Origin: a virus
Taxonomy: Duplodnaviria; Caudoviricetes
Direction: 5' to 3' (one strand)
Length of the DNA stretch: 64,000 bases
IMG/VR virus record: IMGVR_UViG_3300028364_000013
In this document: positions 11,111-63,999 of the stretch, one piece after another
Numbering within the stretch: the stretch's first letter is position 1
How the letters are laid out: each line of letters starts with the position of its first letter
The notes under the pieces: generated by a model
Database searches by the model: none
Told to the model about the DNA's origin: nothing
What the model saw: the letters and a program-made list of their open reading frames with translations, nothing else
Position numbers and translations under genes: made by a program

Positions 11111-11632
11111 CAATAGAGCGCCACTCTTAATCAAAGCTGGCAATTCATCAAACAAACAATTTAGCAAATCAAACAAGCTTAATTTAGCGTTTGATTTTAT
11201 TGATGCGCCTTCGCTAATAAATTCTATGCTTTCATCAATATAAACAGGAAGTCCTGAAATGTTTTTGATGCCATCTCCAGCTGCAGTTTTAACAAACTCA
11301 ATCTCTGGAGTCATATACACAAACTCTTTATCGTCTTCTAACTCAATTCTAAATTTCTTATAGACTCTAATTGCTTTATACTCTATTGGTAACTGTGTTG
11401 CTGATACAAGCGCTCTAACAACTTCGTATTCTTCAGAAAAAACGCTCCTAACCAAACCTTTGGCATCATAGAAAAAGTGAATTAAATCAGCGCAAGTTAT
11501 ACTCTCTCCAAGCTCTACATCCAACATAAGTATGCTTGAAAGAAATTCTGACTTGTCTTCTAATTTAGACAAGTCAGCAAGTTCTCCTCCAATAGATACT
11601 CTGCCTCCAGAATCTATTTTTAACATTCTCAT
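11099..11632 (-). CDS. Hypothetical protein coupled to the Clp ATPase gene
   Basis: ATGA overlap with the Clp gene stop. Confidence 0.7.
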   Translation of the reverse strand: MRMLKIDSGGRVSIGGELADLSKLEDKSEFLSSILMLDVELGESITCADLIHFFYDAKGLVRSVFSEEYEVVRALVSATQLPIEYKAIRVYKKFRIELEDDKEFVYMTPEIEFVKTAAGDGIKNISGLPVYIDESIEFISEGASIKSNAKLSLFDLLNCLFDELPALIKSGALLLPQ

Positions 11633-27078: not shown

Positions 27079-27346
27079 TCAAATTTTCTCATAATGTTCT
27101 TTAAGAAACTTTACTATTTCTCTCGATGGCACCTGAACCGCTCCGTTATCAATAGCTCTCTTAATCACATCTCCTTTGACATCATAATGAGGCCTATTCT
27201 TACCTCGCTTATTTTTCAAACCAGCATCTATTTAACCCTATCTCTTCTGCAAACTCATGCAAAGAAGAGATAGTATCAGCAACTAAGTGACACCACCCCT
27301 TCCTTGGAAAGTCTATTAAAAAAAACTGGTTGATTAGCTTCCACAC
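27079..27346 (-). pseudogene. DUF4031-like phage gene split by a one-base frameshift (not in ORF track)
   Basis: Frame 1 WCHLVADTISSLHEFAEEIGLNRCWFEK*, frame 2 NKRGKNRPHYDVKGDVIKRAIDNGAVQVPSREIV; shift at TTTGAAAAATAAG (~27208-27220). Confidence 0.65.
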
Positions 27347-29895
27347 ATCAAACAATCATCTGGATTATCCAGGCTGCAGTTTAAGCCTTTTAAAGCCTCT
27401 TCTTCTGCGTCTGATAAGTCAACAGTGGGTTTTTCTATAACTGCAACTTGAGAAACCTGAGGCACCACTGGAGCCATTACTTCAGGAATTACTACAACCT
27501 CTTCTAATTTTTCAGAAGATTCTGTGTCAACTCCAAGAGATTTTCTTGCTTCAGCTTTAGCATTGCTTCTTAAGTAGTACATACCAGTTTTAAGCCCTTT
27601 TTTCCAACCATAGAACAATGCTTTGTTTAGTTTTCCAGCATTTGCATCACGAATAAATAAATTCATTGATTGTGATTGACAGATAAAAGCACCTCTATCA
27701 GCCGACATATCAATCAAATTGCTTGCTTTCATTTCCCAAACAGTTTTGTAAACAGACTTAATTTGGTCTGGAATGTTGCTTATAGTTTGAATTGAGCCGC
27801 TATTTTGTATCAACTTAACTCTCATCTCATCACCCCAAAGGCCAAGGTTTATTAAGTCCTCAACCAAATGTCTGTTTACAACAACAAATTCTCCAGACAA
27901 GGTATTTCTCTTGTATAAATTGTTTGTGTAAGGTTCAAAACACTCATTGTTTCCAAGTATCTGAGCAGTAGAGGCAGTTGGCATAGGAGCAAGTAAAAGT
28001 GAATTACGAACACCATATTTCATTACTGACTTTCTAAGTTTAGACCAATCCCACATTCCAGAAAGCGTTTCCTCATTCACGCCCCATAGGTTAAATTGAA
28101 ATTGACCCTCAGAAAGAGGAGAGCCACTAAATGTTTTATATGCTCCATATGCATCTTCAAACTCTTCAGAATCTTGAAGAGTTAATTTCATTGCTTCTTT
28201 TCTAACTTTCTTAGATATATCGTTAGATGCTGTCATAGATGCAAAGTAAATGGTCTCAAAAATATCTTTATTTAACTTTTTAGCTTCATCTGATTCAAAA
28301 GGAATACCCATAAGAGCAAACGTATCCGCAAGACCCTGCACTCCAATACCAATTGGCCTGTGTCTCATATTCGATTTCTTAGTTTCCTTAGTTGGATACC
28401 AATTAACATCAATAACCTGATTAAGGTTTAGTGTAGTTTGATATGCGACATCATAAAGTTTTTCAAAATCATATTCTCTCAAATCCTTTTCTTTCGATTT
28501 AACTCTACCACTTGGTATTGTAACCATTTTTGGAAGCGCTATTGAAGCCAGGTTACATACAGCGGATTCATCTGGAGTCGAAACCTCTAAAATTTCTGTA
28601 CACAAGTTAGAAGATTTGATTGTACCTATGTTTTTTTGATTTGACTTGTTGTTGGCCGCATCTTTATATAGAATGTAAGGAGTTCCAGTTTCAATCTGAG
28701 CCTCAAGTATTTTTGCCCACAATTCCCTTGCTGGCATTGTTTTTCTAACTTTACCTTCTGATTCATATTTCTCATACAAAGCTGTAAACGCTTTATTGTC
28801 ATGTGAATCAAAAACATCAGAAAGCCCTTGGCATTCATTTGGACACATTAAAGACCAGCTTTTATCTTCTTCAACTCTCTGCATAAACAAATCAGGAACC
28901 CAAAGTGCTAAAAATAAGTCTCTCGCCCTAAGCTCTTCTTTACCATGATTTTTTCTAAGGTCAATAAACTGTTCAACATCAGCATGCCATGGTTCAAGAT
29001 AAATAGCAAAAGAGCCTTTTCTTTTACCACCTTGATTTATCCACTTAGCAACTTCATTGTATGTTTTAAGCATTGGAAGTATACCATCAGCATATCCTCC
29101 AGTACCTTTTATGTAAGAACCTTTTGCTCTAACATTATGGATATGAAGACCTATTCCTCCAGCCCACTTAGAAATGTTTGCAACATCCTTAACAGTATCA
29201 AACAAAGAATTAATATCGTCACCTTTGTTTGCAACCAAGAAACATGAAGACAATTGAGGCTTCGGAGTTCCAGAGTTAAACAAAGTAGGTGTTGCGTGCG
29301 TAAATTGACCAGTTGACAATAACTCATATGTATTTTGAACTTGTTCAAAGTTATCTCCCCAGATACCCAACGCAACCCTCATATACATGTGTTGAGGTGT
29401 TTCAGCTATGTTACCAGCTATCTTCAATAAATAGGACCTCTCAAGAGTCTTAAATCCGAAATATTCGAAATCAAGGTCTCTATCATGAACAATCATTGAT
29501 TCAATTTTTTTACCATTATTTTGAACCAGGTTATATAACTCTTCTGAAACAAGAGGCGCTGCCTCTCCAGTCTCTGGACTTATATAGTTATACAAATCTT
29601 CAACAGTCTCTTTGAAACTCTTCTTAGTTTCTTTTTTCAAAGAAGTCAATGCTATTCTCGCTGCTAATATAGAATAGTCTGGATGGACTCTTGTCATTGC
29701 CGCTGCAGTTTCTGCTGCAAGCTCATCAAGCTCTTTAGATGTTACTCCATCATAAACACCAGAAATAACCTTCTTGGCTATTTCCATATAATCAACATGC
29801 TCAGAATCTAATCCGTATGTTTGCTTTTTTATTCTTGCTGAAATTTTATCAAACTTCACCGTCTCTTCTGAGCCGTCTCTTTTTATTACTTTCAT
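27334..29895 (-). CDS. nrdA: Ribonucleotide reductase class Ia alpha subunit with ATP cone
   Basis: VIKRDG ATP cone, TPTLFNSG, QLSSCF, SNLCTE, PTAST, KTGMYY, C-terminal CxxC. Confidence 0.97.
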   Translation of the reverse strand: MKVIKRDGSEETVKFDKISARIKKQTYGLDSEHVDYMEIAKKVISGVYDGVTSKELDELAAETAAAMTRVHPDYSILAARIALTSLKKETKKSFKETVEDLYNYISPETGEAAPLVSEELYNLVQNNGKKIESMIVHDRDLDFEYFGFKTLERSYLLKIAGNIAETPQHMYMRVALGIWGDNFEQVQNTYELLSTGQFTHATPTLFNSGTPKPQLSSCFLVANKGDDINSLFDTVKDVANISKWAGGIGLHIHNVRAKGSYIKGTGGYADGILPMLKTYNEVAKWINQGGKRKGSFAIYLEPWHADVEQFIDLRKNHGKEELRARDLFLALWVPDLFMQRVEEDKSWSLMCPNECQGLSDVFDSHDNKAFTALYEKYESEGKVRKTMPARELWAKILEAQIETGTPYILYKDAANNKSNQKNIGTIKSSNLCTEILEVSTPDESAVCNLASIALPKMVTIPSGRVKSKEKDLREYDFEKLYDVAYQTTLNLNQVIDVNWYPTKETKKSNMRHRPIGIGVQGLADTFALMGIPFESDEAKKLNKDIFETIYFASMTASNDISKKVRKEAMKLTLQDSEEFEDAYGAYKTFSGSPLSEGQFQFNLWGVNEETLSGMWDWSKLRKSVMKYGVRNSLLLAPMPTASTAQILGNNECFEPYTNNLYKRNTLSGEFVVVNRHLVEDLINLGLWGDEMRVKLIQNSGSIQTISNIPDQIKSVYKTVWEMKASNLIDMSADRGAFICQSQSMNLFIRDANAGKLNKALFYGWKKGLKTGMYYLRSNAKAEARKSLGVDTESSEKLEEVVVIPEVMAPVVPQVSQVAVIEKPTVDLSDAEEEALKGLNCSLDNPDDCLMCGS

Positions 29896-36400: not shown

Positions 36401-38038
36401 TTAGAAATAAACCCCTTCTGATGATAAATCTTTATAATTTACACCAGATTTGTAGTCAATTGAGAACATCATGCCTCTATGAAATGAAAGAATTTTAGCT
36501 ATTTCTTCGACAAGAAATTTTTCATCTGGATGCATGTCAAAAACAAGAGAATCATGAACTTGAAACAGAAAGCTGCTTGAATAGCCTTTTAGTAATTCTT
36601 TTATCTCACAAACTTTATCAATTACTATTTCAGAAGCTGTAGATTGAATGTAATTGTTAAATCCAGCATAAGATTTTTCTGGATTTATTATTGAACCCCA
36701 TTTGTTGATTATATACCCGTCAGCTTCCGCTTGAAGCATTAACTCCTTAGATTTGGAGAATAATGGGCTCAAGAATTCTTTGACCCTTAGCATCTTCTCA
36801 ATTGGATATTCTTCTCCTTTAAGCTTTTTTAATACAGTAGCCTCGCTTGCTCCATAAAGTATAGAGTGATTTACGAGTTTTGCAACATCTCTTTGCTCTG
36901 GCGTAAACTCCATTGATTCAAAAATAATCCTGGCAGTCTCAGAGTGCAAATCTTTATCATAAAACCTTTGAATAAACTCCTCGTCTTCACTAAGGTACAA
37001 CGCAATTCTCACCTCAAAAGAAGTGTAGTCAAATTGATATATCCTACCATTTCTAAATTTAGAAATTATCTTTGTTCTTTCTTCGTTGCTTTTTGAAAGG
37101 TTTTGAGGATTATACCTGTCCTTGCTTGTTATCCTTCCTGTAATTGTTCTTTTGTTTGAATAGTTTATTTTGGCAAGCTTTGCGTTTTCACGATAAATGA
37201 AATCAAGATTTTTATCAAAATCATACACAAAAGGTATGTATCTTGTAGACATCCATCTTGTTATTTTGTCTCTAACGCACATTCTTTTAAAAAAGACTTC
37301 TTCATCATCATCAAGACTTAAATCATCAAGAGGTATTTTGCTCATTAGAAACGGGACATATTTACTGATGTTTACATTTGTAATTATTTGAAAATATTTC
37401 AAAGGAGTCTCTACTCCAAATTTAATCCACCTGATAATATCAAGAGTTCTGATGTCTCCAAGAGAATCAAGGTCAACATAATCCTCTATTCCATCATGAG
37501 AATAAATTAAACAATTCATGCTATTAAAAACCTTTGATAGCTCTAATCTATAATTACCTTCTGTAAGAAACATATTTTTTACATTTACAATGTAATTTTT
37601 GTTTCCATTCCGCATGTATAAAGCTCCTTCATTGAAGTGTATGTAAGTTATAATTTTCTCATCTATAACATCATCAACAAACTTACTAAAGCTACCATGA
37701 ACAAGTGAATCAAACAAATCATAATCCGATGGAAGCCATGCGTATAAGTTTTTGTTTACAAATTCTTCAATATTTCTATGAAAGTTTTGACCTTGTATTT
37801 CTGAAGCTTCAACAGAATTATAGGTCCAATATAGATTTTCAGAAACTTCACTGTCACTTATTTTCTGATTAGGAAAATTACTCTTCATAAAATTCCACCC
37901 CACCATTAGTGTAGCAACTTCATAATATCCATCATCTGGTATTTTTGTGGTAATTTCAACAGGATAACCGCCTAAGAACTGTTTTAAGTCATTAGCTGAT
38001 TCTATCGTGTCTACTATAATTTTGCAAATCCTAAACAT
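36401..38038 (-). CDS. polA: Family A DNA polymerase-like protein
   Basis: TITGRI, NPQNL, motif A FDYTSFEVRI, motif B RDVAKLVNHSILYG, NYIQSTAS, motif C QVHDSL. Confidence 0.85.
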   Translation of the reverse strand: MFRICKIIVDTIESANDLKQFLGGYPVEITTKIPDDGYYEVATLMVGWNFMKSNFPNQKISDSEVSENLYWTYNSVEASEIQGQNFHRNIEEFVNKNLYAWLPSDYDLFDSLVHGSFSKFVDDVIDEKIITYIHFNEGALYMRNGNKNYIVNVKNMFLTEGNYRLELSKVFNSMNCLIYSHDGIEDYVDLDSLGDIRTLDIIRWIKFGVETPLKYFQIITNVNISKYVPFLMSKIPLDDLSLDDDEEVFFKRMCVRDKITRWMSTRYIPFVYDFDKNLDFIYRENAKLAKINYSNKRTITGRITSKDRYNPQNLSKSNEERTKIISKFRNGRIYQFDYTSFEVRIALYLSEDEEFIQRFYDKDLHSETARIIFESMEFTPEQRDVAKLVNHSILYGASEATVLKKLKGEEYPIEKMLRVKEFLSPLFSKSKELMLQAEADGYIINKWGSIINPEKSYAGFNNYIQSTASEIVIDKVCEIKELLKGYSSSFLFQVHDSLVFDMHPDEKFLVEEIAKILSFHRGMMFSIDYKSGVNYKDLSSEGVYF

Positions 38039-38640: not shown

Positions 38641-41600
38641 TTATATATCTAATCCAGATTCAATGTCAATCATTACATTAGTTCCTTGAGCCACTGCTGC
38701 ACCTGCCGCAACTGATGCTGCCGTAGGTTTATCAATAGGTATTCCAAGCTTATCTGGAAGCCCGTACCACTTAGAGCCTTTTCTGCTATCATATTGAAAT
38801 TGCGCTTTCCCTGGTCTATATTCCCAGTGCCATTCTTCAGAAGTCACAGTTCTTACGAACCCAAACTTATAAGCATTTAAAACAAGCCATTCATAAATAG
38901 GCATTATAACACCTCCAAATTTAGCACCCTTACAGTTGAGGTCAATTGCAAGTCCTGAATTGTGATTAGAATATCCTGGACGTGCTGTTGCTGGGTCGAA
39001 ATTACCAGAACTTGCAGTTCTTAGATAATTATCATCATTCTTTTTGTTTTTATTTATTACGTTCTGTTTTCTTAAATTATACTGAGCAGTAGATATAAAC
39101 CTTCCATTACCATCTATAACATTATTAAAAGGGTCTCTATACCCACTACTAAGATGTAAGTCAATTCCATCTGCTACCGCAGCTATTTGCATAGCTTTAT
39201 ATGCAGACAATATCTGAGCGGTTAATGGATATTTGTCAAAAATATATAATTGTTCAGAACCGATAACAGCACCACCCGACCATAGGTCTCTAACCCCAAG
39301 AGAAGTATCATAAGAAGATGTCAATTCATTCAATGGTAATTTTGGCACAGAAAGAGCCACTGGTCCTCCTGAATTTCCATTTACAAATTCTTGACCAAGA
39401 TAATCTGCTGCATTTGCAGAGAAACTACCAGTCACAGCAACAAGAGCTTCTGTAAAGTTCTTTAAAGCATCTCTTGCAGCTTGGTCAAACCCTTGAGGAA
39501 TAGCAAGAGGAGCTTCTGATTCTCCAAGCGCCCTAAATGTATCAAGCGTTACTGGCTTAATAGAACCATATCCACTACCAGGAGAGAATCTCATTCTAAT
39601 CCCCTCTAAAGATGTGTCCATATTATTTGGTGATATAGAGTGCTTAACTTTCATAACTTGATAAAGGCCTCCAAACAATGGAGAATTTTCAAGGAAGAAA
39701 AATTGCATTGGATAAACTTGAGAATTACCAAGAACATCAATAGTCGCTTTGTATGAACGACCAGCAAGAACAGGAAGCATTGAACAGTCTGTTGTTACTT
39801 TTTTGTTCTGATTTTCATTGTCAACCAACCTTTGAAGGTTGACGATGCTTTCGGCAGTAACTTTATTATCTTCAGTTCCAACTGATATGTTTTTTACGAT
39901 TTGATTATCTGGATGACCATACTTAATAACATATGAACCAACATTGTAGGCTTTTTGCTTATCACTAAAAGCAATTGAAGTTCCGTCAGCATTCTTTGTC
40001 TTAGTCCTTGATTCTGGGGTTGGAGTAAATAATACGTGAAAGAAATTTCTAACCTGAAGATTTGCAAGTTTTGAGCTTGGGCTCCAAATGTTAGCAACAT
40101 CCAAGTATCCTGGATTTCCAGGAATTGGAATAAATAAAAAGTTATTCTTGGAACACACCTGTTGTATTATATTCAAAATACTTGTATTAGCATTTGGCTT
40201 ATAAAGCGGTTCTAAATTTATAATAGAATCTCTTACAACAATTGGCTCCCCTGGATTGTTAATCCTTTGCATAGGATAATCATATACAAAAGTTCCGTTT
40301 GGAACTCCTTGAGCGCTTTGTGAACTTCCTATGTTTACAGAAACCTGGTCTGTTCCTGGTGGAAATAGTTCAACTAAATCTTCTGCAGTAGCATCTGTAC
40401 CCTCAGCATATTCTTCTTTAGTTACCCAAACTTTTTCATCCCTTAAAAGGTCTACGTGATTATCTCCAAACCTTGCCTCAAGAGCTTCAGCTACATTAAA
40501 CACCTTAGCTTTGGCATCATCCCCTTCTGCCCCCTTGTGTTCATCAACATCTCCACATAAAGCTCCGTTGCTATCTATGTTATCGCTATAGGATAGCGAC
40601 TGCCATTGATGGAACAATACGTGCATTTGCTTATAAATAGCAGCCTCGCTATCTCCAGCCTTACCTAATACTTCTCCAATAATTTGATTTCTCTTATCAA
40701 TAATGTCATCCAACTTCTGAAGAAGAACGTCACACGCCTTTCTAACAAAAGCTCTATGATTTCTCCCACTTTGACTTGGGCTAAAAATTCCAAATACAAG
40801 ACCAGAATCTGGGTCAGTACCACTATGTGCCGCAATTGTATACCCTATGTTTCCAGTGTAATCAACACCGTCTTGATTTGTTGTTTGGTTTGGGTTATCT
40901 TGCGGATTTTCTTTAATAGAATTATTCCATTTAATATTTGTTGCCGCAAAAAGCGTAACCAAAGGGTCTTTAGAGCCGAAAAAACCTGGAGCTGGGTCTT
41001 TCATCTCATCAAAATCAACTACATTTCCAGCTCTACTTTGAGTCGTACCATCTCTATATCCCACAAGAGACCCTATTCTGTTAAGTATAAACTTAGGAGA
41101 GTTATCTAAAGCAGTAGTTTTATCTCCCTCATCTCCGTATTTAGCATTAATAGGGACATATCCAAGCGGTTCATTTTGACCAGCATCAGTAATGTCTTTA
41201 TCTGAATTTTTAAACTCACCATCTGTTGGTGCAGAATTAGCCTCTTGAGCTCTTTTGTTGTCTTCTCCTCTAAAAAACACAGCCATGTATTCATTGCCAT
41301 TTGATGTCGGGAATGTATAGCCAATTCTATTATTTACTATTCTTGTTGCTGTATATTTACTGTCAACAAAAGATAGTGGATTTTGAGCATTTCTAATTCC
41401 AGAAGGAGAAAGACTTTTAGCGTCAGACAGCGAATTACTTTGATTGTTTGCTAAATTTTGAGCTTCGTTTTGAACTGCCTGTATTTGGTCTTCTCTTTTA
41501 GACTCTTCTTCCTCATAAGTATTAAATACAAGATTTCCATTTACAAGAGTCACATTATCTCCTAAAAAAACCTCAGGAACAGCAAGCTCTCCCCATATCT

Positions 41601-43662
41601 GCTTGAATGTGAGTGTCTCATATCCAAGAGCTGCATTCTCTTCTTTTGTTCTTAATTGTATCTCATCATCTTCGCTGGCTTCAAAAGCGTCTAAAACATT
41701 AGGAAACCCATCATCTCCAGCAGGGTCTGAAGGGCTTTGTAAAACTACTTGCCAATCATCTGGGCTTTGGTTTCCAAAATAACTCATTCCAGACCCAAGA
41801 AATGCTGTTGTAGCTGCTGCATCTGCAAACCCAAATCCTCCTGGAACTATTTGAAGGCCTGAATCCCCATTTGGATGCGCCATTGATGCTGCGTCTTGAG
41901 TAAATGCGTTGGACATAAAAAGGCAATACCTTCTTAATAATAAAAAATCAACATCAGAAAGGTTTCCAAGTATTGAATCAGTTATGTTCTGAATATCCCT
42001 CTCTGCAAGCTCTTCAATTGACGAAACATCATCTCTATCAACTTTCCAAATATCTCCACCAAAATCTCCTGGTAAATTTGGGTCACTACTTCTTGTCATA
42101 TAAGCAACAATGCCACCCCTAACAAGTATGTTTGATGCTATGTTTGGATAATATGATTTATAAGGATTTGAGGATGACATTTCAATGTTATTAATCCTTT
42201 GCTTGAGTGCTGCATCATCTTGTCCAGACTGAGCGTTATTTACAAGCAAATCTTTTGCAATACCCTCACTAATAGCAATGATAAAATTTTTTACAAACTC
42301 CATTTCGTGTTCGTCAACACCAATTTCAACACCGTCAGCACCTTGTGCTCCTTCTAAATTCTTCTTTGTTGCTGGAAGTTCATCTCCATCATCATTCAAA
42401 ACCAAAGGAAATGATTCTCCAATAAGAATTTGCTTATTTACTAACAACTCATCTCTGGCCGCTTGTCTGTCACTACTCCCTCTGTATCCATCAAGTCCAG
42501 CATCAAGAATACTTCCCATTAAAAAGGCAGAATCTTTTGCTATTTGTGAAAATATTTCTCCTATAGTAATTTTCTCAAGCTTCTTTTCTGATGAAGCAAA
42601 AACTCTCCTTTTTATTTCATCATCAATCTTTTGAAGATTGTCTGATATAAGACCGAGAGTTTGAGTCTTAGCTGAATCAATTGGAATTCTAAGCGTAGGA
42701 TTATTAAACGCCTTATTAAATGAAGCGAAATTACTTGTTACAACACCAAACCTCGTAAATCCATTAACATTTACTCCGTTTGCATTTATCTTAAGAGATA
42801 ATAACAAATAAGTATTTAATGCATTTAAGGTTGTTGCCTCTTTAAGCTTGCTCTCAATAAGTGGTATTGAATTTACGTCATCTCCAAAATCAGCTATATT
42901 AGGAATTGTAATAGTTTGAAATCCTACTACCGACTGATTGTTTACAGAGCCAATAACTTCTTCTCCAGGTTCTAAAATATTTGTAACAGTAAGAGCTCTA
43001 CCTAAGTTAGACTTCATGCTACCCAGTTTCTTAACCAGGTCATCAAACTCTTTTGTTGTATCCTGTGTTTTAACCTCAACCTGCTTACCTATTTTAATAA
43101 GGTCAAAGATGCTTGTTACAGCATCATCATTTCCTGGTCCAAGCCTATCTTTTCTTAATCTTTTTGCTGCAAGCAAATATAAGAAAGGTAAATCAGCAAA
43201 GAATCCCCATTGATTTGGTACAAACTCGCATTTAACGTCATAAGAGCCATCGCTTCCATTAAATGAAGTAGATGTCCTCTTTAGGTTAAGTAACCACGTA
43301 GACGGCTCCCCAAGGTATCCCTTGTAGGAAAATAAGAACTTTGGTGGTGGCCAGTTGAATAATACAGAATAGTCAATAGAAACATTGCTATCTGTTGGAT
43401 GCCTGTCTTGACCTCCGAAAATAGTTTGACCATACAAATCTTTAAACACAATTGTTACAAGAGGTTGTAGTGAAGTGTTAATCTCAATATCAATTGATGT
43501 GATACCAAAACCAACGCTTTGTCTGAAGAATTCTGCACTAAACAGTTTTCTTCCAAGAAAATCAAACGTACTCCCTCCAACGCAAGCTTCAAGCCTAACG
43601 TCAATAAAGAGGTCTTTCATACGAAAACCATCTGGCTGTGGATTTACTGGTGCTCTTCCCAT
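38641..43662 (-). CDS. Large baseplate/hub-like virion protein with C-terminal M15 (VanY-like) peptidase
   Basis: C-terminal SSGYRD...ARPGYSNHNSGLAIDL...EEWHWEY; located in the tail module. Confidence 0.75.
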   Translation of the reverse strand: MGRAPVNPQPDGFRMKDLFIDVRLEACVGGSTFDFLGRKLFSAEFFRQSVGFGITSIDIEINTSLQPLVTIVFKDLYGQTIFGGQDRHPTDSNVSIDYSVLFNWPPPKFLFSYKGYLGEPSTWLLNLKRTSTSFNGSDGSYDVKCEFVPNQWGFFADLPFLYLLAAKRLRKDRLGPGNDDAVTSIFDLIKIGKQVEVKTQDTTKEFDDLVKKLGSMKSNLGRALTVTNILEPGEEVIGSVNNQSVVGFQTITIPNIADFGDDVNSIPLIESKLKEATTLNALNTYLLLSLKINANGVNVNGFTRFGVVTSNFASFNKAFNNPTLRIPIDSAKTQTLGLISDNLQKIDDEIKRRVFASSEKKLEKITIGEIFSQIAKDSAFLMGSILDAGLDGYRGSSDRQAARDELLVNKQILIGESFPLVLNDDGDELPATKKNLEGAQGADGVEIGVDEHEMEFVKNFIIAISEGIAKDLLVNNAQSGQDDAALKQRINNIEMSSSNPYKSYYPNIASNILVRGGIVAYMTRSSDPNLPGDFGGDIWKVDRDDVSSIEELAERDIQNITDSILGNLSDVDFLLLRRYCLFMSNAFTQDAASMAHPNGDSGLQIVPGGFGFADAAATTAFLGSGMSYFGNQSPDDWQVVLQSPSDPAGDDGFPNVLDAFEASEDDEIQLRTKEENAALGYETLTFKQIWGELAVPEVFLGDNVTLVNGNLVFNTYEEEESKREDQIQAVQNEAQNLANNQSNSLSDAKSLSPSGIRNAQNPLSFVDSKYTATRIVNNRIGYTFPTSNGNEYMAVFFRGEDNKRAQEANSAPTDGEFKNSDKDITDAGQNEPLGYVPINAKYGDEGDKTTALDNSPKFILNRIGSLVGYRDGTTQSRAGNVVDFDEMKDPAPGFFGSKDPLVTLFAATNIKWNNSIKENPQDNPNQTTNQDGVDYTGNIGYTIAAHSGTDPDSGLVFGIFSPSQSGRNHRAFVRKACDVLLQKLDDIIDKRNQIIGEVLGKAGDSEAAIYKQMHVLFHQWQSLSYSDNIDSNGALCGDVDEHKGAEGDDAKAKVFNVAEALEARFGDNHVDLLRDEKVWVTKEEYAEGTDATAEDLVELFPPGTDQVSVNIGSSQSAQGVPNGTFVYDYPMQRINNPGEPIVVRDSIINLEPLYKPNANTSILNIIQQVCSKNNFLFIPIPGNPGYLDVANIWSPSSKLANLQVRNFFHVLFTPTPESRTKTKNADGTSIAFSDKQKAYNVGSYVIKYGHPDNQIVKNISVGTEDNKVTAESIVNLQRLVDNENQNKKVTTDCSMLPVLAGRSYKATIDVLGNSQVYPMQFFFLENSPLFGGLYQVMKVKHSISPNNMDTSLEGIRMRFSPGSGYGSIKPVTLDTFRALGESEAPLAIPQGFDQAARDALKNFTEALVAVTGSFSANAADYLGQEFVNGNSGGPVALSVPKLPLNELTSSYDTSLGVRDLWSGGAVIGSEQLYIFDKYPLTAQILSAYKAMQIAAVADGIDLHLSSGYRDPFNNVIDGNGRFISTAQYNLRKQNVINKNKKNDDNYLRTASSGNFDPATARPGYSNHNSGLAIDLNCKGAKFGGVIMPIYEWLVLNAYKFGFVRTVTSEEWHWEYRPGKAQFQYDSRKGSKWYGLPDKLGIPIDKPTAASVAAGAAVAQGTNVMIDIESGLDI

Positions 43663-43970: not shown

Positions 43971-44031
43971 AATTATTTACTTTTCTATAAATAATAAGAA
44001 TAAAAAAAGTGAAAACAAAGCCTATTACAGA

Positions 44032-48390: not shown

Positions 48391-48449
48391 TAATTAGTGT
48401 TTCTTATAAATAATAAAAGAAAAAAATTCAGGCATTAAATTAAAGCCTT

Positions 48450-51830: not shown

Positions 51831-51857
51831 GCTCTTCTTTTATTATAAATAAATAAT

Positions 51858-56461: not shown

Positions 56462-56933
56462 CTTTCAATAATTTTTTAAATCTCTTCCTTTGTGTTTTGT
56501 AATCATTATTAAGGTCATGCTCCCACACTCTCTCAATACTAAAACCATTTCCCTTTGCAAGTACGTCTTTAAACTTGTCGTTCTTTACGTTTCTAATTTG
56601 CATTTTATTCAAATCCTTTGACTCGTATATTAATGGGTTTGCGTGATAATAATCCCCATCAACCTCAACCATCATATTCTTTGATGGTATGTAAAAGTCA
56701 TATATCTTGTTTCCAAGAACTTTTTGTGTTTCAAATTTAATGTCAAGCTCTTCCATCATATCAGAAAAAATTCTCTCAGGAGCCGTCATTTTATTTGCCA
56801 TTTTCTTGGCTTGTGACTCCAGTTTCTTTTTTTTCATCAACTTAGCAGCTTCAGGGCTTGCTTCCCTTCTGGCTTTTGCCATCGCCTTCTTGACCATTTG
56901 AGCATATGTCAACTTCTTTCTTTTCTTAGCCAT
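56454..56933 (-). CDS. DUF559/Vsr-like endonuclease
   Basis: TAPERIF...YDFYIP...VEVDGDYYH...D..K. Confidence 0.75.
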   Translation of the reverse strand: MAKKRKKLTYAQMVKKAMAKARREASPEAAKLMKKKKLESQAKKMANKMTAPERIFSDMMEELDIKFETQKVLGNKIYDFYIPSKNMMVEVDGDYYHANPLIYESKDLNKMQIRNVKNDKFKDVLAKGNGFSIERVWEHDLNNDYKTQRKRFKKLLKDE

Positions 56934-57727
56934 TAAGCAAATCCTAATTTAGGAAGTATATTGCCTATATTTGCAAGACTAAACTCTCCAAGCTCTGCGC
57001 CTTTTGCTCCTGTTAAAATACCTGGGTGCGCCAATCCGCCTGCGAACATAATAGCAACTCCTCCCATGAAAATACCATTTGCAGCCTTGTGAATTTGCGC
57101 CTTGTCAGCATTAGGCATAAATGGAGCAATAGCCTTTTCTATAATAGCAATATACTTGTGATGTATTTTTTCTCCAGCCTTTGCTGTTTTTCCACCCCAC
57201 TTCTGAAGCCACTGTGAATTCATTTTCTTCCCTGTCCATTCTGCAGCTTTTCCGCCATACTTTAAGATAGCTGGAACTGCCATAGCTAAACCAAGAATAC
57301 CACCTTCATTTAGGTCTTCTTCATTTAACCCTTCTCCTATTGCTCCCATGAACATAGACTCATTGAATGTTATTTCACTAATCATTCCTTCTTGAATTGG
57401 TTGAGCCCCAGTTTGTGCTGGCTGCGCTTGAGCATTGTTGTCATAAACGCCTGGAGCATCCAATGCACCATCCTTATCTCCTCCAGATTTTGCAAACTTA
57501 GCAAGAACAGAAGGAAGACCTTGTACTAACTTAGCCATTGCCTGGTCCATAGTTGCATCAATGTTTTGACCTATCTTTTGGTCTCTCTGTGGGTCTACAG
57601 CAGGTTTTTGAGCTTGCGCAGGCGCAGCGGGTGCTGCAGGAGCAACCTGTGCTTCATTAATTTTTGATTCTAATAAAGTTTTCATTTTATTAAAAGATTC
57701 CTCTACTATTTTCTTTTTATTATTCAT
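56933..57727 (-). CDS. Hypothetical protein (Ala/Gly-rich, probably virion)
   Basis: ATG at 57727 behind TATTTATA (57742-57749). Confidence 0.7.
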   Translation of the reverse strand: MNNKKKIVEESFNKMKTLLESKINEAQVAPAAPAAPAQAQKPAVDPQRDQKIGQNIDATMDQAMAKLVQGLPSVLAKFAKSGGDKDGALDAPGVYDNNAQAQPAQTGAQPIQEGMISEITFNESMFMGAIGEGLNEEDLNEGGILGLAMAVPAILKYGGKAAEWTGKKMNSQWLQKWGGKTAKAGEKIHHKYIAIIEKAIAPFMPNADKAQIHKAANGIFMGGVAIMFAGGLAHPGILTGAKGAELGEFSLANIGNILPKLGFA

Positions 57728-57847
57728 GCGTATAACTTTATTATAAATATGAAATAAAAAGGTGTTCAATTACTAAAAAACGTATTTTATGCAAAAAAAA
57801 ACCATATTTACATAAAAGGAACAAAACTCTTTAAACACAACAGCACA

Positions 57848-58024
57848 ATGGAAATAATGGACACAGATTTTGATGATAATGCAAAATTAATCATAAAAGA
57901 ATTGACTGAGGCTAACGAAAACTTTGAAAAAGTTATCAAAAAATTACAACAGGCCAGAAACAAATTTATAAAAAAACACGAACCCATAGAAGCCTTAAAA
58001 ACAAGTATTAAAAACAAAAGCTAA
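57848..58024 (+). CDS. 58-aa coiled-coil protein (not in ORF track), first gene of the PAS operon
   Basis: MEIMDTDFDDNAKLIIKELTEANENFEKVIKKLQQARNKFIKKHEPIEALKTSIKNKS*; TAATG overlap with the PAS gene. Confidence 0.6.
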   Translation: MEIMDTDFDDNAKLIIKELTEANENFEKVIKKLQQARNKFIKKHEPIEALKTSIKNKS

Positions 58025-58548
58025 TGAATTCTGATGAAAATAAAGACATAAAAGGAAAATTAGACAGCGGACTAAATAGCCCAAAAAGCCTGAAAGCTTT
58101 AACTGAAAAACTAAACAACAGAGATAAAGATTTAGAAGAAGAAAGAGAAGTTTATAAATTCTTAGCAGAAAATTCTAACGATGGCTATTGGGACTGGAAA
58201 ATGGATAAAGACATACCTTTTGAAGAGCAATATGAATATATGTCTCCAAGATTTTGGGAAATATTTGGATACTCGCCAGAAGAAAAAGAACACAAAGTTA
58301 AAGCGTGGATGGACATGATTAACAAAGAAGATGGAGAGGCTGCTGTAGAAAATCTTAATAAGCACATAAAATCAAAAGGAAAAACGCCTTATAAACAAAC
58401 AGTAAGGTACACACATAAAGACGGAAGTACGGTTTGGGTACTTTGCAAGGGAGCGGTTGTAAAATGGAACGAAGATGGTAGTGCATCAAGAATGATTGGC
58501 ACTCACACTGACGTTACTGAAATAATGAATTCAAAAAACAATAAGTAA
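58024..58548 (+). CDS. Stand-alone PAS (PAS_3/PAC) domain protein
   Basis: LAENSNDGYWDW...SPRFWEIFGY...RYTHKDGSTVWV...G...RMIGTHTDVTE; no output domain. Confidence 0.88.
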   Translation: MNSDENKDIKGKLDSGLNSPKSLKALTEKLNNRDKDLEEEREVYKFLAENSNDGYWDWKMDKDIPFEEQYEYMSPRFWEIFGYSPEEKEHKVKAWMDMINKEDGEAAVENLNKHIKSKGKTPYKQTVRYTHKDGSTVWVLCKGAVVKWNEDGSASRMIGTHTDVTEIMNSKNNK

Positions 58549-58976
58549 TGGCAGAAAAAGATGAAAACCAAGGGTGGAAAGAATGGTCTAACCACGTCCT
58601 TAAAGAACTTGAGCGTTTGAATAGCAACTATGAAAACCTTAAAGATGAAGTTATTAAAACAAATCAAGAATTAGTTAAGACTTCTGGAATGAGGTACGCT
58701 CTTAATGAACTTAAAGAATGGAAGAAGGATGTCGAAAAAGTTGTTAATGAGACAGACCTCAAGGAAATGAAAAAAAGTGTTGCAGAAATTAAGACAAACA
58801 CAGAAAATATTGAGAAAAATAAAGGCAAAATAACAGAAGTTGACAAAGAAAAAGATGCCAACAAAAAAGACATTGATGACCTTAGAACTTTTAAAACAAA
58901 AGTAGTTACGGCTGGAGTCATTTCTTTTTTCATTCTAACTACAGCAATTACTATTCTTGGTTGGTATCTGTCTTAG
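58548..58976 (+). CDS. Coiled-coil protein with single C-terminal TM (XhlA-like topology)
   Basis: Heptad-rich body, C-terminal VVTAGVISFFILTTAITILGWYLS; TAATG-coupled. Confidence 0.7.
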   Translation: MAEKDENQGWKEWSNHVLKELERLNSNYENLKDEVIKTNQELVKTSGMRYALNELKEWKKDVEKVVNETDLKEMKKSVAEIKTNTENIEKNKGKITEVDKEKDANKKDIDDLRTFKTKVVTAGVISFFILTTAITILGWYLS

Positions 58977-59433
58977 AAGCTTTTTTAGCCATACCATCAA
59001 CCATTCTTATGAATTTTGTAGTATTGCGTTTTACATGAAAGAAATTGACTGTATGGTTTTCAACCACTTCAATTAATCTTTCCCAAGCCTGTTGATTTTC
59101 TACAGGTTTTTTTTTGTTGTTAAGCCACCCGTTAGCTACCCATTTATCATACCACCTATCCTTCAGGCAATTTATAACATAAGCACTGTCTGAGTAAAGA
59201 TTTATCATTTCACTGCCTTTTCCATTCAGAGCCTCAAACGCTTGAGCTACAGCAATTATTTCCATTTCTTGATTTGTTGTTCCTGCAACGTGCCCAGAAC
59301 CTTGAAGTGTTATCTCCATATTTTTGCCTGGTTCATTTTCTAAAATTAGAAAAGCCCATCCACCTTTTCCTTCTGCAGTTCCATCTTCTTGCCTGTTATT
59401 GTCTTTGCAGGCTCCATCTGTGTATATATTCAT
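58951..59433 (-). CDS. rnhA: Ribonuclease HI
   Basis: YTDGAC, TNQEME, YSDSAYV, W...GW...KPVEN. Confidence 0.9.
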   Translation of the reverse strand: MNIYTDGACKDNNRQEDGTAEGKGGWAFLILENEPGKNMEITLQGSGHVAGTTNQEMEIIAVAQAFEALNGKGSEMINLYSDSAYVINCLKDRWYDKWVANGWLNNKKKPVENQQAWERLIEVVENHTVNFFHVKRNTTKFIRMVDGMAKKASKTDTNQE

Positions 59434-59816
59434 TTTCTGTATTTTTCAAAAGGTTTAACTGGTTTTAAATCTTCTCCTATCGTTTTCGCCTTTACATTCT
59501 TAACAGCTGGCAATTTTATTTCTGACCAATCAATTGGCTTATGCTCCAATTTAGGCATCTCTACAAAAACACCATCTTTAAGCTCATAATCGTTTCCGCC
59601 AATTACCCAACAGCTTTCATAATCAGTTGCCTGAACCCCGCTCTTAGTTACATATTTTAAAAACCAACCATGAACAAAATCATGACCTGAGCCAATTTCA
59701 TACAAATCCTCTCCTTTAAATTTAAAGTCAGATTTTTTGTCTTCTGTAAGATTTGAAATTGTTTCTTCTAACTCTTTTTTTAAATCTTCTCCTGTTACAT
59801 GAACAAGTTCGAACAA
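59430..59816 (-). CDS. Hypothetical protein (start uncertain)
   Basis: TTG start; upstream ATG at 59833 is out of frame across an A7 run. Confidence 0.6.
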   Translation of the reverse strand: MFELVHVTGEDLKKELEETISNLTEDKKSDFKFKGEDLYEIGSGHDFVHGWFLKYVTKSGVQATDYESCWVIGGNDYELKDGVFVEMPKLEHKPIDWSEIKLPAVKNVKAKTIGEDLKPVKPFEKYRK

Positions 59817-59838: not shown

Positions 59839-60441
59839 TTATCTATTTGATGGTACATAATTTTCATTTATAGTACCATCGTCATTTAACTTACAATGCA
59901 CTACTCCGTGGCAATTTGAACAAAGTAAAATACATTTATTTAATTCAGGCAATAAATTAATCCAAGATTTTTTTCTCATCTTATTCCAATTCATTTCTTT
60001 TTCTTCTGGCTTTTCGTGGTGAAATTCAAAACTTGCATAATGTCCTTTAAACCCACAATCTACACAACGCCCACCCAAATGCTCTATTGCCCTTTTTTTA
60101 AAAACCCTTGCTCTTTCAATATCGTGCTTTCCACTACAGTCTCTACATCTACCATAGACTTTCAAACTATTGGGTGAAAAATCATCCTTTATTCTATATG
60201 TCTCACAATCATAACACCATTGATGCTCATCTGGACATTCTCCTCTTTTTTCTAAATTTTCTCTATACTCTAAAATCTTCTTAGCGTGCTCTGGATTTTC
60301 CTTTTTAATTCTATTTAATCTCCTCTCTTTCTCTGCTAATCTAAAACACACTTTACAATCCAACCTCCAACTTCTATTATGCTTATGATACTCTTCTAAA
60401 TCCTTTACCTCATTACAAGTTCTGCATTTTCTTTCTTCCAT
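59839..60441 (-). CDS. HNH-type putative homing endonuclease
   Basis: Multiple CxxC; GGRCVDCG...FHH...LLCSNCH; TATTTATA at 60450. Confidence 0.75.
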   Translation of the reverse strand: MEERKCRTCNEVKDLEEYHKHNRSWRLDCKVCFRLAEKERRLNRIKKENPEHAKKILEYRENLEKRGECPDEHQWCYDCETYRIKDDFSPNSLKVYGRCRDCSGKHDIERARVFKKRAIEHLGGRCVDCGFKGHYASFEFHHEKPEEKEMNWNKMRKKSWINLLPELNKCILLCSNCHGVVHCKLNDDGTINENYVPSNR

Positions 60442-60497: not shown

Positions 60498-60935
60498 TTA
60501 TTCACCCTTTTCTAAAAATGATATATCAAGAGTCCATTTTTTCTTACTTCTTTCTTCCCAAATATTAAACACTTCCTCAATATAATCATCTGCCTGCTTA
60601 TCAGTTAAACAATTTATTTTCATCATATGTGCTTTAATTTCTTTTTCTTTTCCAGAAATTCTTGCATATCCAAAATGCTTTGTAGAATGACAATTTGGAC
60701 AAAGCGCAATTAATCCCTTAAGAGTCTGCTCACAAGACTCATCATCATAATTCCAAATTTCGTGACACTCCACGGGATGCTTCGGGCCCTTACCGCTGCA
60801 AACTTCACATTTATATTCTGCTTTCTTATAGCAGTCTTTTCTAAGGACATCCCACTCTGCTTGTGATACATTGGAGCGCACGTTATTATAAAAAGAAGAT
60901 GCAGGCACAAGTTCTATAGTTAAAATCATAATCAA
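60498..60935 (-). CDS. Conserved phage HNH-domain protein
   Basis: ELVP...NVRS...CEVC...CHEIW...LIALCPNCHSTKH. Confidence 0.75.
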   Translation of the reverse strand: MIMILTIELVPASSFYNNVRSNVSQAEWDVLRKDCYKKAEYKCEVCSGKGPKHPVECHEIWNYDDESCEQTLKGLIALCPNCHSTKHFGYARISGKEKEIKAHMMKINCLTDKQADDYIEEVFNIWEERSKKKWTLDISFLEKGE

Positions 60936-61900
60936 TTAAATTTATCCCATTTATGTGTACAAATAAACTTATTTTCCTTAATAAATCCAATTAAATAATC
61001 AATAACAATTGGATTATATATTCTAAGTCTAAAATAGGAATCTTTTTGTTTTAAAGCTTTTTTACTCAAAGTTACATTAAAAATATCTTCTAAGCGTTTT
61101 ATCCAATATTTTAATATTAACTTCCAATTTTCATGAGAAGTAATAGTTATACATCTCGAATTTTTCTTGCTTAAATATAAACTACCATCTCCATCAATGA
61201 ATCCTATTAAAAAACTTAAAAAATTTTCATCTGACATTTTATTAAAAACACTCAAAGAAGGCGGGAAATATGTTTTAGTTTTTTCTCCCTTTTTATAATT
61301 TATATCATACTTTTTATTTATCAAAGGAATTACTTTTGAATCTTTTAAATAACATATAGCGCTCCCATTACTAACTGTATCAACTCCTAATATATTTACT
61401 TTTTTCACTTCATCGTATAGTTTAATATTTTTACAACCAATATAATTAGCAAAACCAATAACAACTTCCTTATTTTTCATACACTGATTCAGTTGTATCT
61501 TTTTATTTGTAAAATATCCATCAGCAAATAATAGACCTATGTAATAATATGTTTTAACACTCTCATTCAATAGAATTTCAACATTAGAGTCTCTCATTGT
61601 TGAATATTGGTATTCTGCTCTTTTTAATTTTAATTTTTTAGCTTTTGCTAAAATAGAGCTCCAACTTCTGTTTTCCAAAAGTTTCAATAATTTTTCAGAA
61701 GAAGAGTTTGAATAGTATTTTATTATAATATTCTCTTCCATTTCTGACCATAAATTTTCTTCTGTTATTCCAAGTGCTTTTTTTCTATTTTTTACAGAGG
61801 GAATTGTTCTTCCAACTAATTCAGCTAAATACTTAATTGGAGATTCTATATTGTTTTTTAAAATAAAATCCTCCTGCTCTGTCCATCTTTTGTTTTTCAT
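60932..61900 (-). CDS. Two-motif LAGLIDADG homing endonuclease
   Basis: YYIGLLFADG and FLIGFIDGDG; N-terminal WT..ED repeats; TATTTATA at 61917. Confidence 0.85.
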   Translation of the reverse strand: MKNKRWTEQEDFILKNNIESPIKYLAELVGRTIPSVKNRKKALGITEENLWSEMEENIIIKYYSNSSSEKLLKLLENRSWSSILAKAKKLKLKRAEYQYSTMRDSNVEILLNESVKTYYYIGLLFADGYFTNKKIQLNQCMKNKEVVIGFANYIGCKNIKLYDEVKKVNILGVDTVSNGSAICYLKDSKVIPLINKKYDINYKKGEKTKTYFPPSLSVFNKMSDENFLSFLIGFIDGDGSLYLSKKNSRCITITSHENWKLILKYWIKRLEDIFNVTLSKKALKQKDSYFRLRIYNPIVIDYLIGFIKENKFICTHKWDKFN

Positions 61901-61901
61901 A

Positions 61902-61979
61902 TTACATGTATTTTATTATAAATACATGAAAATTTTTAAACCAAGCCGTCTGTGGTACTAATTCAATTGTTAGCTTCAT
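61902..61979 (-). pseudogene. Orphan original 5' end of the HNH gene (MKLTIELVPQTAWFKN...)
   Basis: ATG overlapping the dnaE 3' end; matches LTIELVPASSFYN at the start of 60498..60935. Confidence 0.75.
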
Positions 61980-63999
61980 CTTCTTTTTTACTTAAATCTT
62001 TATCAACTCGAACGATTCTCGTTCCTCTCTTAAAATTAACATAACCTTTTTCGTTCTTTTCAAACTCAGCAACATAAATGCCATTGGCAGCAAGGAGTGG
62101 TTGTAGAGATTTCGCAACTGGGTCGAAAGCTCTAAGTGTTGTGAAACTAATTCCATCACCAACTCTCATTGTTAAATATTCTTTTCCATTCTTACTCATA
62201 GAAACCTTAAAGGTATCTACCACAAAAATGTAGAAATCATTATCATCAAAATTAATAATTGTCTCAACAAGCTTATCTCTCTTAGCTCTCTTGTTTACAT
62301 CAGCCTTTATGTCCTGAATGTACTTTATTTTTTCAAGGTCAAAATTACACACCTCAAGGAAATCTGTTCTTTTCGATGCCCAGTTTGTTGGAGGATATTT
62401 GTTCTCTTCTTTTTTAACTGGAATGTCAAAAGCTTCGTCATTCATATCAAACAAAACAGTTTGATTTGCGTTTACTTTCTTTTTCTTTTTTGTCTTAGAC
62501 TTAAGGTCAGCAAGCTGTTCTCTTGAATCGCTCCAATCATCAAATACGCCAGCTTTAAGGCAAGCTTCAAAAGCACTTTTATTAAACTTGCTAAACGGCA
62601 ATCTAAAGAACAAACTCATACTCACAGTCTCAAGGGTTTTTTTCTCCTGACCTTCTTTGACTTTTATTTCTTTAATCAAATCAAGCATCTCTTCGTATGC
62701 AATTGGGCCCAATCCGTTAATACCAGAGAATCCCATAGAAATTTCGTGCTCACCAGTCATTGTCCATCTCCATCCAGACTTTCTTGATGGCATCTTTATC
62801 TCAATCCCTTTTGACATCGCAGAAGCAATTGCAGAACCAATCCAAGCTTGCTGTTTTTCTTTGTTACCAGACTTAGGGTGATTTAGAAGGGCGGTATAAA
62901 ACTCGGTTGGGTAGTAGTGTTTTAAATACAAAGTTTGCATCGCCAAATAACTATATGAAAGTGCATGAGACTTATTGAATGAGTATCCAAGGTATTGAAT
63001 TACCCAATCTTTAATTTTATCTACATCACCTTTGTCATAACCTTGAGCTGCAGCCCCATCTAAGAACATGTTCCAATACTGCTGGAAACCTTTCCAGTTC
63101 TTGTCGTTTTTCTCTGTATCAGTTAGCGTCTCTCCCGCTGAATTTCTTGCAATAATTTTAGATGCCTTATCCATATACCTTCTAAGCATATCTCCTTTAC
63201 CAAGACCCATTCCACCAATCTTATCAGCAATAAACATAAGTTGTTCCTGAAACACAAGTACTCCATTCGTTTCTCCAAGAATCGGCTTCAACGCAGGGTG
63301 GATATATTTAATCTTCTCTGGGTTGAATTTGTTTACGATAAACTCTTCGTGTGCGCCAATTCCCATTGGGCCTGGACGATACAGTGCGTTGGCAGCAACA
63401 AGTTCTTCAAATTTATCAACTGCAATACCTCTAATAAGATTGTTCATACCATGACTCTCAAACTGAAATATCCCATGATTAAGACCAAGCCTTAATTCTG
63501 TAAATAACTTTGGGTCTTCAAGGTCAACGTAATCAACTTTTTGAGAAATATCTTCTCCCGTTGTTCTTTTTACAATGTCAACAGTTTCCTTAATTACATT
63601 TAAGGTTTCTAATTTTAATCTATCCAATTTTAGAATCCCAAGTGCTGAAAGGTCTTTTCCAGACTTATCCGCCTCCTGAAACGCTGTAACAACACTTCCG
63701 TTGGATGTGATTACATTGGTTGGAATATAATCCCAAGATAACCCTGGTGTAATTACAACTCCTGCAGCATGCTGTCCAATACCTCTAATGTTTCCATGAA
63801 GCTGGAGAGCAGTCTCAATCATCTCCTTATTTTTTGGCTCTCTAATCCAATTTCTAACTTCTGGACTACACTCTGGTTTATCTGGCCAAGTTTCAAACCA
63901 ATGCCTAAGAGTGTCGTTGTAATTTAAGAAGTTCGGCATCTCCTTTGTTAATTTAAACACTCCAGAATCAAACCCAGTAGCATCGCTTCCACGATATGC
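61963..63999 (-). CDS. dnaE: DNA polymerase III alpha subunit (C-family), 5'-truncated by window edge
   Basis: GQHAAGVV, LKLDRLKLETL, GIFQFES, LYRPGP, TNGVLVFQEQ, YSFNKSHA; frame open to the edge. Confidence 0.93.
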   Translation of the reverse strand, partial: AYRGSDATGFDSGVFKLTKEMPNFLNYNDTLRHWFETWPDKPECSPEVRNWIREPKNKEMIETALQLHGNIRGIGQHAAGVVITPGLSWDYIPTNVITSNGSVVTAFQEADKSGKDLSALGILKLDRLKLETLNVIKETVDIVKRTTGEDISQKVDYVDLEDPKLFTELRLGLNHGIFQFESHGMNNLIRGIAVDKFEELVAANALYRPGPMGIGAHEEFIVNKFNPEKIKYIHPALKPILGETNGVLVFQEQLMFIADKIGGMGLGKGDMLRRYMDKASKIIARNSAGETLTDTEKNDKNWKGFQQYWNMFLDGAAAQGYDKGDVDKIKDWVIQYLGYSFNKSHALSYSYLAMQTLYLKHYYPTEFYTALLNHPKSGNKEKQQAWIGSAIASAMSKGIEIKMPSRKSGWRWTMTGEHEISMGFSGINGLGPIAYEEMLDLIKEIKVKEGQEKKTLETVSMSLFFRLPFSKFNKSAFEACLKAGVFDDWSDSREQLADLKSKTKKKKKVNANQTVLFDMNDEAFDIPVKKEENKYPPTNWASKRTDFLEVCNFDLEKIKYIQDIKADVNKRAKRDKLVETIINFDDNDFYIFVVDTFKVSMSKNGKEYLTMRVGDGISFTTLRAFDPVAKSLQPLLAANGIYVAEFEKNEKGYVNFKRGTRIVRVDKDLSKKEDEANN

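Follow-up and report, generated by a model that had tools for sequence, protein, structure and literature searches.

Why should a phage carry a PAS sensor domain that has no enzymatic output attached, and why should its gene be coupled to that of a membrane-anchored protein? The locus that raises this question lies at positions 57848-58976 of the window, by which we mean the whole 64-kb stretch of viral DNA that was analysed. ORF calling gave three plus-strand genes, for proteins of 58 aa (57848-58024), 174 aa (58024-58548; a helix followed by a PAS_3 domain) and 142 aa (58548-58976; a coiled coil with one C-terminal transmembrane (TM) segment, hereafter TA for tail-anchored), which are joined by TAATG stop/start overlaps at 58021-58026 and 58545-58550. 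The genes around this cassette are all on the minus strand. To one side lie a 264-aa gene (56933-57727), a DUF559 nuclease, a 119-aa gene and two T4-type baseplate hub genes, and to the other RNase H (58951-59433), a 128-aa gene, an HNH gene, a small HNH-like gene, a LAGLIDADG-like gene and a Pol III alpha-type polymerase. An earlier note on this DNA had described three TAATG-coupled plus-strand genes within a minus-strand region, and the ORF coordinates, both overlaps and the flanking strands bear this out. Substitutions relative to related phages pile up at codon position 3 in the 58-aa and 142-aa ORFs (codon-position bias of 12-15/7-9/22-23 for the 58-aa ORF), which supports the view that both are coding. 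Both junctions of the cassette are bridged by contigs from four lake-water runs, with zero differences and no PAS-less joint.

The record itself is an 81-kb viral contig with a CheckV completeness of 25%. Because the neighbouring genes are of T4 type, an identical PAS protein is encoded on a 364-kb contig and DNA of the window is present in lake-water metagenomes, we assign the source to a jumbo phage with T4-like structural genes. A search of the phage collection gave no DNA match to the window. Between them, the genes at 11629-13644, 27334-29895, 36401-38038, 38641-43662 and 61963-63999 encode a ClpB-like double AAA+ protein, the large subunit of a class I ribonucleotide reductase, a family A DNA polymerase, the Pol III alpha-type polymerase and a 1,673-aa protein, the last of which carries a C-terminal VanY peptidase domain.

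The minus-strand 264-aa gene and the plus-strand cassette diverge from an intergenic region (57728-57847) that contains the sequence CATATTTA at 57803-57810, unchanged in the window and three relatives (alignment A1). This resembles TATTTATA, a motif that precedes about a dozen start codons of the window phage by 14-27 nt when read on each gene's own strand, for example at 43986-43993, 48405-48412, 51844-51851, 57742-57749 and 61917-61924. We infer that CATATTTA is a candidate promoter of the cassette, and TATTTATA may be a phage promoter or leader element that gives very short leaders. The plus-strand form, TATAAATA, is present in 24 copies in the window compared with 6.9 expected. Neither form is a T4 late promoter in the usual orientation. 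The copy of TATAAATA at 57742-57749 was considered as a T4-type late promoter for the cassette and dropped; it precedes the minus-strand gene by 15 nt and, read in the direction of that gene, is TATTTATA, the motif that recurs before many genes.

Synteny with the closest relatives, three IMG/VR loci (L001-L003), extends from the baseplate hub genes to the polymerase gene. In all three, a gap of 5-6 nt separates a 56-aa gene from a downstream 142-aa gene, whose product shows 65-73% identity to the window protein, and there is no PAS gene. The three genes of the operon described in the earlier note are thus not co-conserved, and since these relatives have only the small gene and TA, the PAS gene was either gained in the lineage of the window or lost from the relatives as a precise cassette. 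The 58-aa gene of the window occupies the position of the relatives' 56-aa gene, which directly precedes TA. A 10-nt direct repeat, TAATGAATTC, is found on the plus strand at the start of the PAS gene (58022-58031) and near its end (58523-58532). These are the only two copies in the window; they flank the PAS ORF, 501 nt apart and in frame, and may be the remains of a cassette insertion or allow the gene to be lost in frame, although the repeat is too short to serve as proof of an insertion mechanism. The interval from RNase H to the polymerase is a hotspot of mobile insertions: the 128-aa gene (59430-59816), the HNH endonuclease (59839-60441) and the LAGLIDADG-like gene (60932-61900) are missing in L001-L003.

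The 174-aa product contains a well-supported PAS domain. Pfam PAS_3 (PF08447) matched residues 72-161 with 78.3 bits (cut-off 25.6; E 5.3e-22), and the NCBIfam matches comprised sensory-box (TIGR00229, E 1.7e-12), diguanylate cyclase and phosphodiesterase models. In the AlphaFold2 (AF2) model (pLDDT 88), a helix (residues 20-48) precedes the PAS core (residues 54-163, nt 58183-58512, plus strand), which has the five-stranded antiparallel sheet and flanking helices of the PAS fold, and a C-terminal helix follows (residues 165-173). The protein matched PDB entry 3mr0 (1.1e-21), and a Foldseek search with the model also placed 3mr0_A first (E 2e-10, TM-score 0.76 by target), with short LOV proteins next. 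Pfam found PAS families only, and no kinase, cyclase or other output domain in the 174-aa protein, just as the earlier note had described it; no HATPase_c domain was found in the whole 81-kb virus record. The flavin-adduct cysteine of LOV domains (GXNCRFLQ-type motif) is absent as judged by eye rather than by structural alignment; the helix at this position has the sequence SPRFWEIFG, both in the window protein and throughout alignment A4. The sole cysteine of the protein, C141, lies in a β-strand. The phage collection yielded a single PAS match, at 24% identity, in Pseudomonas phage Y10, and IMG/VR pattern scans with the PAS protein or its alignment gave zero confirmed loci.

The same PAS subfamily occurs in bacterial multi-PAS sensor kinases and c-di-GMP enzymes, with core identities of up to 64%, and a fragment of a recently broken host kinase had been considered as a possible origin of the phage gene. 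We surveyed EYMSPRFW-type PAS domains in one genome per bacterial species and found 45 loci. The bacterial copies are internal domains, always inside ORFs of 210-1493 aa (at least 369 aa in 43 of the 45), and have neither the N-terminal L-K-x-L-T helix described below nor a TA gene nearby. In a quick tree with unresolved deep nodes, the window PAS belongs to a well-supported clade (SH-aLRT 97) whose other members are L004, a copy from a megaphage (L005) and further metagenomic sequences, none of them bacterial. Because the bacterial copies are confined to large multidomain ORFs that lack a neighbouring TA gene, and because this clade is free of bacteria, the comparison indicates that the intact, stand-alone phage gene is not such a fragment. 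PAS genes linked to TA occupy at least three well-separated branches of the tree, and the PAS types of L014, L029 and L033 are more distant still.

TA has the layout of a small anchored coiled-coil protein: an N-terminal motif, a coiled-coil middle, a juxtamembrane FKTK segment and a C-terminal TM segment. The motif, W-x2-WS-x-HVLKELERLN, spans residues 10-25 (nt 58575-58622, plus strand), and its columns from W10 to N25 do not vary among 24 members whose identity to the window protein ranges from 27 to 73% (alignment A3). Hydropathy analysis revealed a single hydrophobic stretch (residues 119-137; Kyte-Doolittle 19-mer mean 2.28), and the TM segment (residues 119-140, nt 58902-58967, plus strand) leaves only two residues beyond it. 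The AF2 model consists of two long helices. The family, whose HMM matches the window protein with an E-value of 3e-41, has in common the N-terminal motif, a variable coiled coil, the FKT juxtamembrane motif and the conserved C-terminal TM segment. It comprises 117 representative clusters at 50% identity, all of which lack annotation; most members are about 100-150 aa long, and shorter forms of 68-92 aa occur in some loci. With the window protein and a typical TA as queries, tblastn detected no homologue among 50,697 cultured phage records.

TA had been likened to XhlA, which is described as residing in the membrane and is predicted to work together with the holin XhlB; the genes for XhlA, XhlB and XlyA were all required for the effect measured in that study (PMC5589764). 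The likeness in topology is real, since both hydropathy and the AF2 model support a coiled coil with a single C-terminal TM segment, but the XhlA Pfam profile gave no match: PF10779 matched nothing in the phage record at E-values up to 10, and XhlA was missing among the Pfam matches of the window TA protein at E-values up to 1. Nor is there an XhlA-type lysis cassette in the window, where the neighbours are the unknown 264-aa gene and RNase H and there is no adjacent holin or endolysin. TA had weak PHROG matches to phrog_689, 'holin' (6.7e-4), and phrog_937, 'hemolysin' (4.5e-4), and the ESM Atlas placed it with the XhlA cluster at 0.91.

We looked at the gene upstream of TA in other viral loci. 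A profile scan of IMG/VR returned 61 loci, and running the TA HMM on these and on the contigs fetched for PAS homologues placed TA genes in about 60 viral loci, as 67 ORFs that encode about 55 distinct proteins. A same-strand gene of at least 45 aa ends between -65 and +13 nt from the TA start in most of these loci. These upstream partners are mostly short helical proteins of 56-92 aa. A PAS gene takes this position in the window, L004 (two copies), L010/L011, L014, L029/L031, L033 (397 aa, multi-PAS) and L082/L083; weaker cases are L012, where the TA-like gene is below threshold, and L030, which has a weak PAS_8 match. Some of the TA-linked PAS domains are barely related to one another, with E-values of 0.11, 0.004 and 1.2 against the HMM of the window family. 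Since the adjacency recurs in seven further loci, plus the two weaker ones, that differ in context and in PAS lineage, the linkage of PAS to a C-terminally anchored protein is no coincidence, as had been suggested from the window alone.

The remaining partners are diverse. Weak cupin matches, below the Pfam cut-offs, were found in the partners of L034, L038 and L042. In L016 (3487-3996) and L020 (2498-3001), TA is preceded by a gene for a protein of 167-169 aa with no family match and no clear L-K-x-L-T helix, which may represent a further partner type. Short partners of 72-92 aa (alignment A5, e.g. L063 2759-2992) keep three cysteines, in L-T-x-K-[LI]-C and K-C-Y-E-x-M-C, that could form a metal or redox site. 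Neither Pfam nor PHROGs gave a match for the short partners or for the 263-aa and 147-aa genes that neighbour the pair in many loci, and full-text literature searches on phage PAS and XhlA-like proteins retrieved no description of the pairing. The two-gene module of TA and its partner is thus without name or description in Pfam, PHROGs or the literature searched. As far as gene content and sequence comparison indicate, the conserved unit is TA plus an upstream partner with a variable C-terminal part, and not a three-gene operon.

What connects the PAS-type and the short partners is an N-terminal helix of the form L-[KR]-x-L-T-x-K-L. Most upstream partners start with a helix of the form N-I-L-K-L-R-E-L-T-x-K-L, and in the window PAS protein the equivalent helix occupies residues 22-33 or so (nt 58087-58122, plus strand), with LKALTEKL at residues 23-30 and an HMM match that spans residues 23-37. 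With this helix and the TAATG overlap with TA, the window protein has both marks by which we assign a gene to the module. Profile comparison of the N-termini of TA-linked PAS proteins with the short partners by hhalign gave a probability of 90% (E 1.5e-6, 22 columns), compared with 0.2% for a control consisting of the 40 residues that precede the PAS core in 36 bacterial homologues, none of which contained L[KR]xLT (0/36). A stricter regular expression for the helix matched 30 of 53 distinct partners and 1.5% of 1,410 other ORFs. Phage PAS genes that have no TA neighbour (L005, L008, L013 and L084) lack L[KR]xLT as judged by eye. The shared helix is short, and single-sequence HMM matches (E 0.03-5) are not significant alone.

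The 58-aa protein of the window is highly charged and probably helical; no family match was found for it, the ESM Atlas gave no lead, and PADLOC and NCBIfam searches with this protein and TA returned coiled-coil noise only. It contains IKELTE, but profile comparison by hhalign (probability 1.7%) detected no relation of its family to the widespread short partners, so that homology to them is not supported.

Gene order, translational coupling, replacement of the short partner in its slot and the shared helix lead us to regard the PAS protein as a sensor-bearing partner of TA. Our tentative explanation is that the locus is a version of a two-gene phage module in which an interchangeable partner gates TA in a late membrane function, with lysis timing as the favoured form of that function. 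The product of gene B (58548-58976), TA, would be a tail-anchored coiled-coil protein of the inner membrane, with its N-terminal motif and long helices on the cytoplasmic side. Gene A, directly upstream and usually overlapping gene B or a few bases away from it, would supply a soluble partner that carries the shared short helix in most loci; the rest of this partner would be swappable and could be short and helical, PAS, multi-PAS or possibly cupin-like. The window PAS protein would then be a sensor-type partner that was placed between the older small gene (57848-58024) and TA. The partner would bind TA through its N-terminal helix, probably by docking this helix onto the conserved N-terminal portion that TA exposes to the cytoplasm. 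The PAS domain would sense a ligand, redox or energy state and so alter the action of TA at the membrane late in infection, where TA could be an accessory to, or a regulator of, membrane permeabilization, in the manner of XhlA with XhlB or of a holin with a cytoplasmic antiholin. A late membrane function gated by a sensor is the reading we favour, and within it we put lysis timing slightly ahead of the tethering of heads. The weak 'holin' and 'hemolysin' PHROG matches, the XhlA cluster of the ESM Atlas, a peptidoglycan (PG)-binding neighbour and the XhlA-like topology are weak hints of a lysis-type TA. That neighbour, 550 aa long, matches PG_binding_1 and, weakly, CHAP (L015 2115-3767), and its gene immediately precedes those of the short partner and TA; L015, L025 and L026 have the same gene cluster directly before the pair, and ClpP-like and trypsin-like peptidase genes lie near the 550-aa gene in these loci.

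The commonest position of the pair, between portal and prohead protease, points to head assembly rather than lysis. In 36 loci the portal gene is followed by the 263-aa gene, the short partner, TA, the 147-aa gene, prohead protease, scaffold and gp23-type capsid; these genes share a strand and have little space between them. TA and its partner could accordingly be head-assembly factors, TA tethering the portal or prohead initiation complex to the inner membrane and the PAS partner gating or localizing assembly. The PAS partners of L004 and L033 lie within this head-gene cluster; in L004 two PAS genes fill exactly the slot of the short partner, between the 263-aa gene and TA. The small prohead core genes 67 and 68 of T4 occupy the same slot, and tethering in T4 is done by the membrane-associated gp40, which is annotated as an initiator of head vertex assembly. 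We nevertheless think this role unlikely. The 36 loci are not independent because they probably represent one phage clade, so that the position between portal and protease may reflect this single clade, and the mobility of the pair argues against a fixed role there: it lies beside baseplate hub genes and RNase H in the window, a clamp loader in L014, terminase and ERF/recombination genes in L010 (a 36-kb contig) and the PG-binding gene in L015. The nearest cultured portal relatives do not have the pair, and sensor domains would be unusual on assembly chaperones. T4 gp67, gp68 and gp40 were rejected as relatives of the pair (hhalign probabilities of 0.04-0.3%), and unlike TA they have no evident TM segment in their sequences.

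A second alternative, distinctly unlikely in our view, is that the PAS protein acts alone on the host by heterodimerizing with PAS domains of sensor kinases or cyclic-di-GMP enzymes, which would dampen or subvert the signalling of the host, and that its adjacency to TA reflects nothing but a permissive insertion site. The occurrence of this PAS type in large bacterial multidomain proteins, at core identities of up to 64%, and the sensory-box, diguanylate cyclase and phosphodiesterase matches in NCBIfam are consistent with this idea, as is the absence of the PAS gene from the closest phage relatives. PAS genes of the same clade also exist without a TA neighbour, in L084 and, beside a phage-encoded kinase and receiver, in L005. 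In the latter locus (3400-5498), on a 79.7-kb contig, the stand-alone PAS gene is divergent from an adjoining 372-aa HATPase_c gene and a receiver-domain gene, which may constitute a phage-encoded two-component system; the PAS protein is annotated 'uncultured marine phage', and the longest contig on record is 656 kb. However, independent action would not explain why unrelated PAS lineages are found repeatedly upstream of TA, with a helix that is common to non-PAS partners and absent in bacterial homologues, and no target kinase can be named. Finally, it is very unlikely that there is no functional link at all and that the PAS gene is a mobile 'moron' between two coupled genes with a generic coiled-coil sequence as its helix: its absence from near relatives, the lineage-specific HNH and LAGLIDADG-like insertions nearby and the 10-nt repeat that brackets the ORF would fit, but the same PAS-TA adjacency in seven further loci and two weaker ones, the PAS genes of L004 in the slot of the short partner and the negative bacterial pre-PAS control do not.

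If the proposed gating of TA by an exchangeable partner is correct, the redox, energy or metabolite state of the host would set when the phage carries out a late membrane event, either lysis or the assembly of heads at the membrane. It would do so by a kinase-free signal-input system that is distinct from the known holin-antiholin and two-component schemes. Little is known of how phages of aquatic bacteria time lysis or choose where to build heads, and in most uncultured T4-like phages the lysis genes have yet to be recognized; a membrane protein with an exchangeable-sensor partner would offer a testable route from host physiology to the late phage programme. It would also provide the first functional context for a pair found in about 60 viral loci and for the 117 unannotated protein clusters of TA, and would account for stand-alone PAS genes in phage genomes. 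Whether many uncultured aquatic tailed phages carry such a modular sensory switch, composed of a TA effector and a docking partner whose sensor is swapped between lineages, is a more doubtful extension.

The proposed scheme can be compared with several known systems. In T4, the timing of the holin T involves the small cytoplasmic antiholin RIII, which targets the cytoplasmic end of this single-TM lysis protein. TA and its partner would resemble this arrangement in that a cytoplasmic protein acts on a single-TM protein. The periplasmic domain of T is large and its TM segment is N-proximal, whereas the anchor of TA is at the extreme C-terminus, and a sequence relation is not expected. XhlA of Bacillus subtilis PBSX, which acts with the holin XhlB and the endolysin XlyA, is like TA a small protein from a phage-like element with an N-terminal coiled coil and one C-terminal TM segment; TA differs in having no Pfam XhlA match and, in the window, no adjacent holin or endolysin. 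XhlA is not known to have partners that carry sensors, and the TA family is defined by its invariant N-terminal motif. The PAS protein itself is most like the 3MR0 PAS domain and the short LOV proteins PpSB1-LOV and SBW25-LOV, which also consist of a single PAS core with N- and C-terminal helices and no enzymatic output. At the flavin-adduct site of the LOV proteins the window protein reads EYMSPRFWEIFGY, which contains no cysteine and from which no cofactor can be inferred. What sets it apart from these stand-alone PAS and short LOV proteins is that it is encoded by a phage and coupled to a membrane protein.
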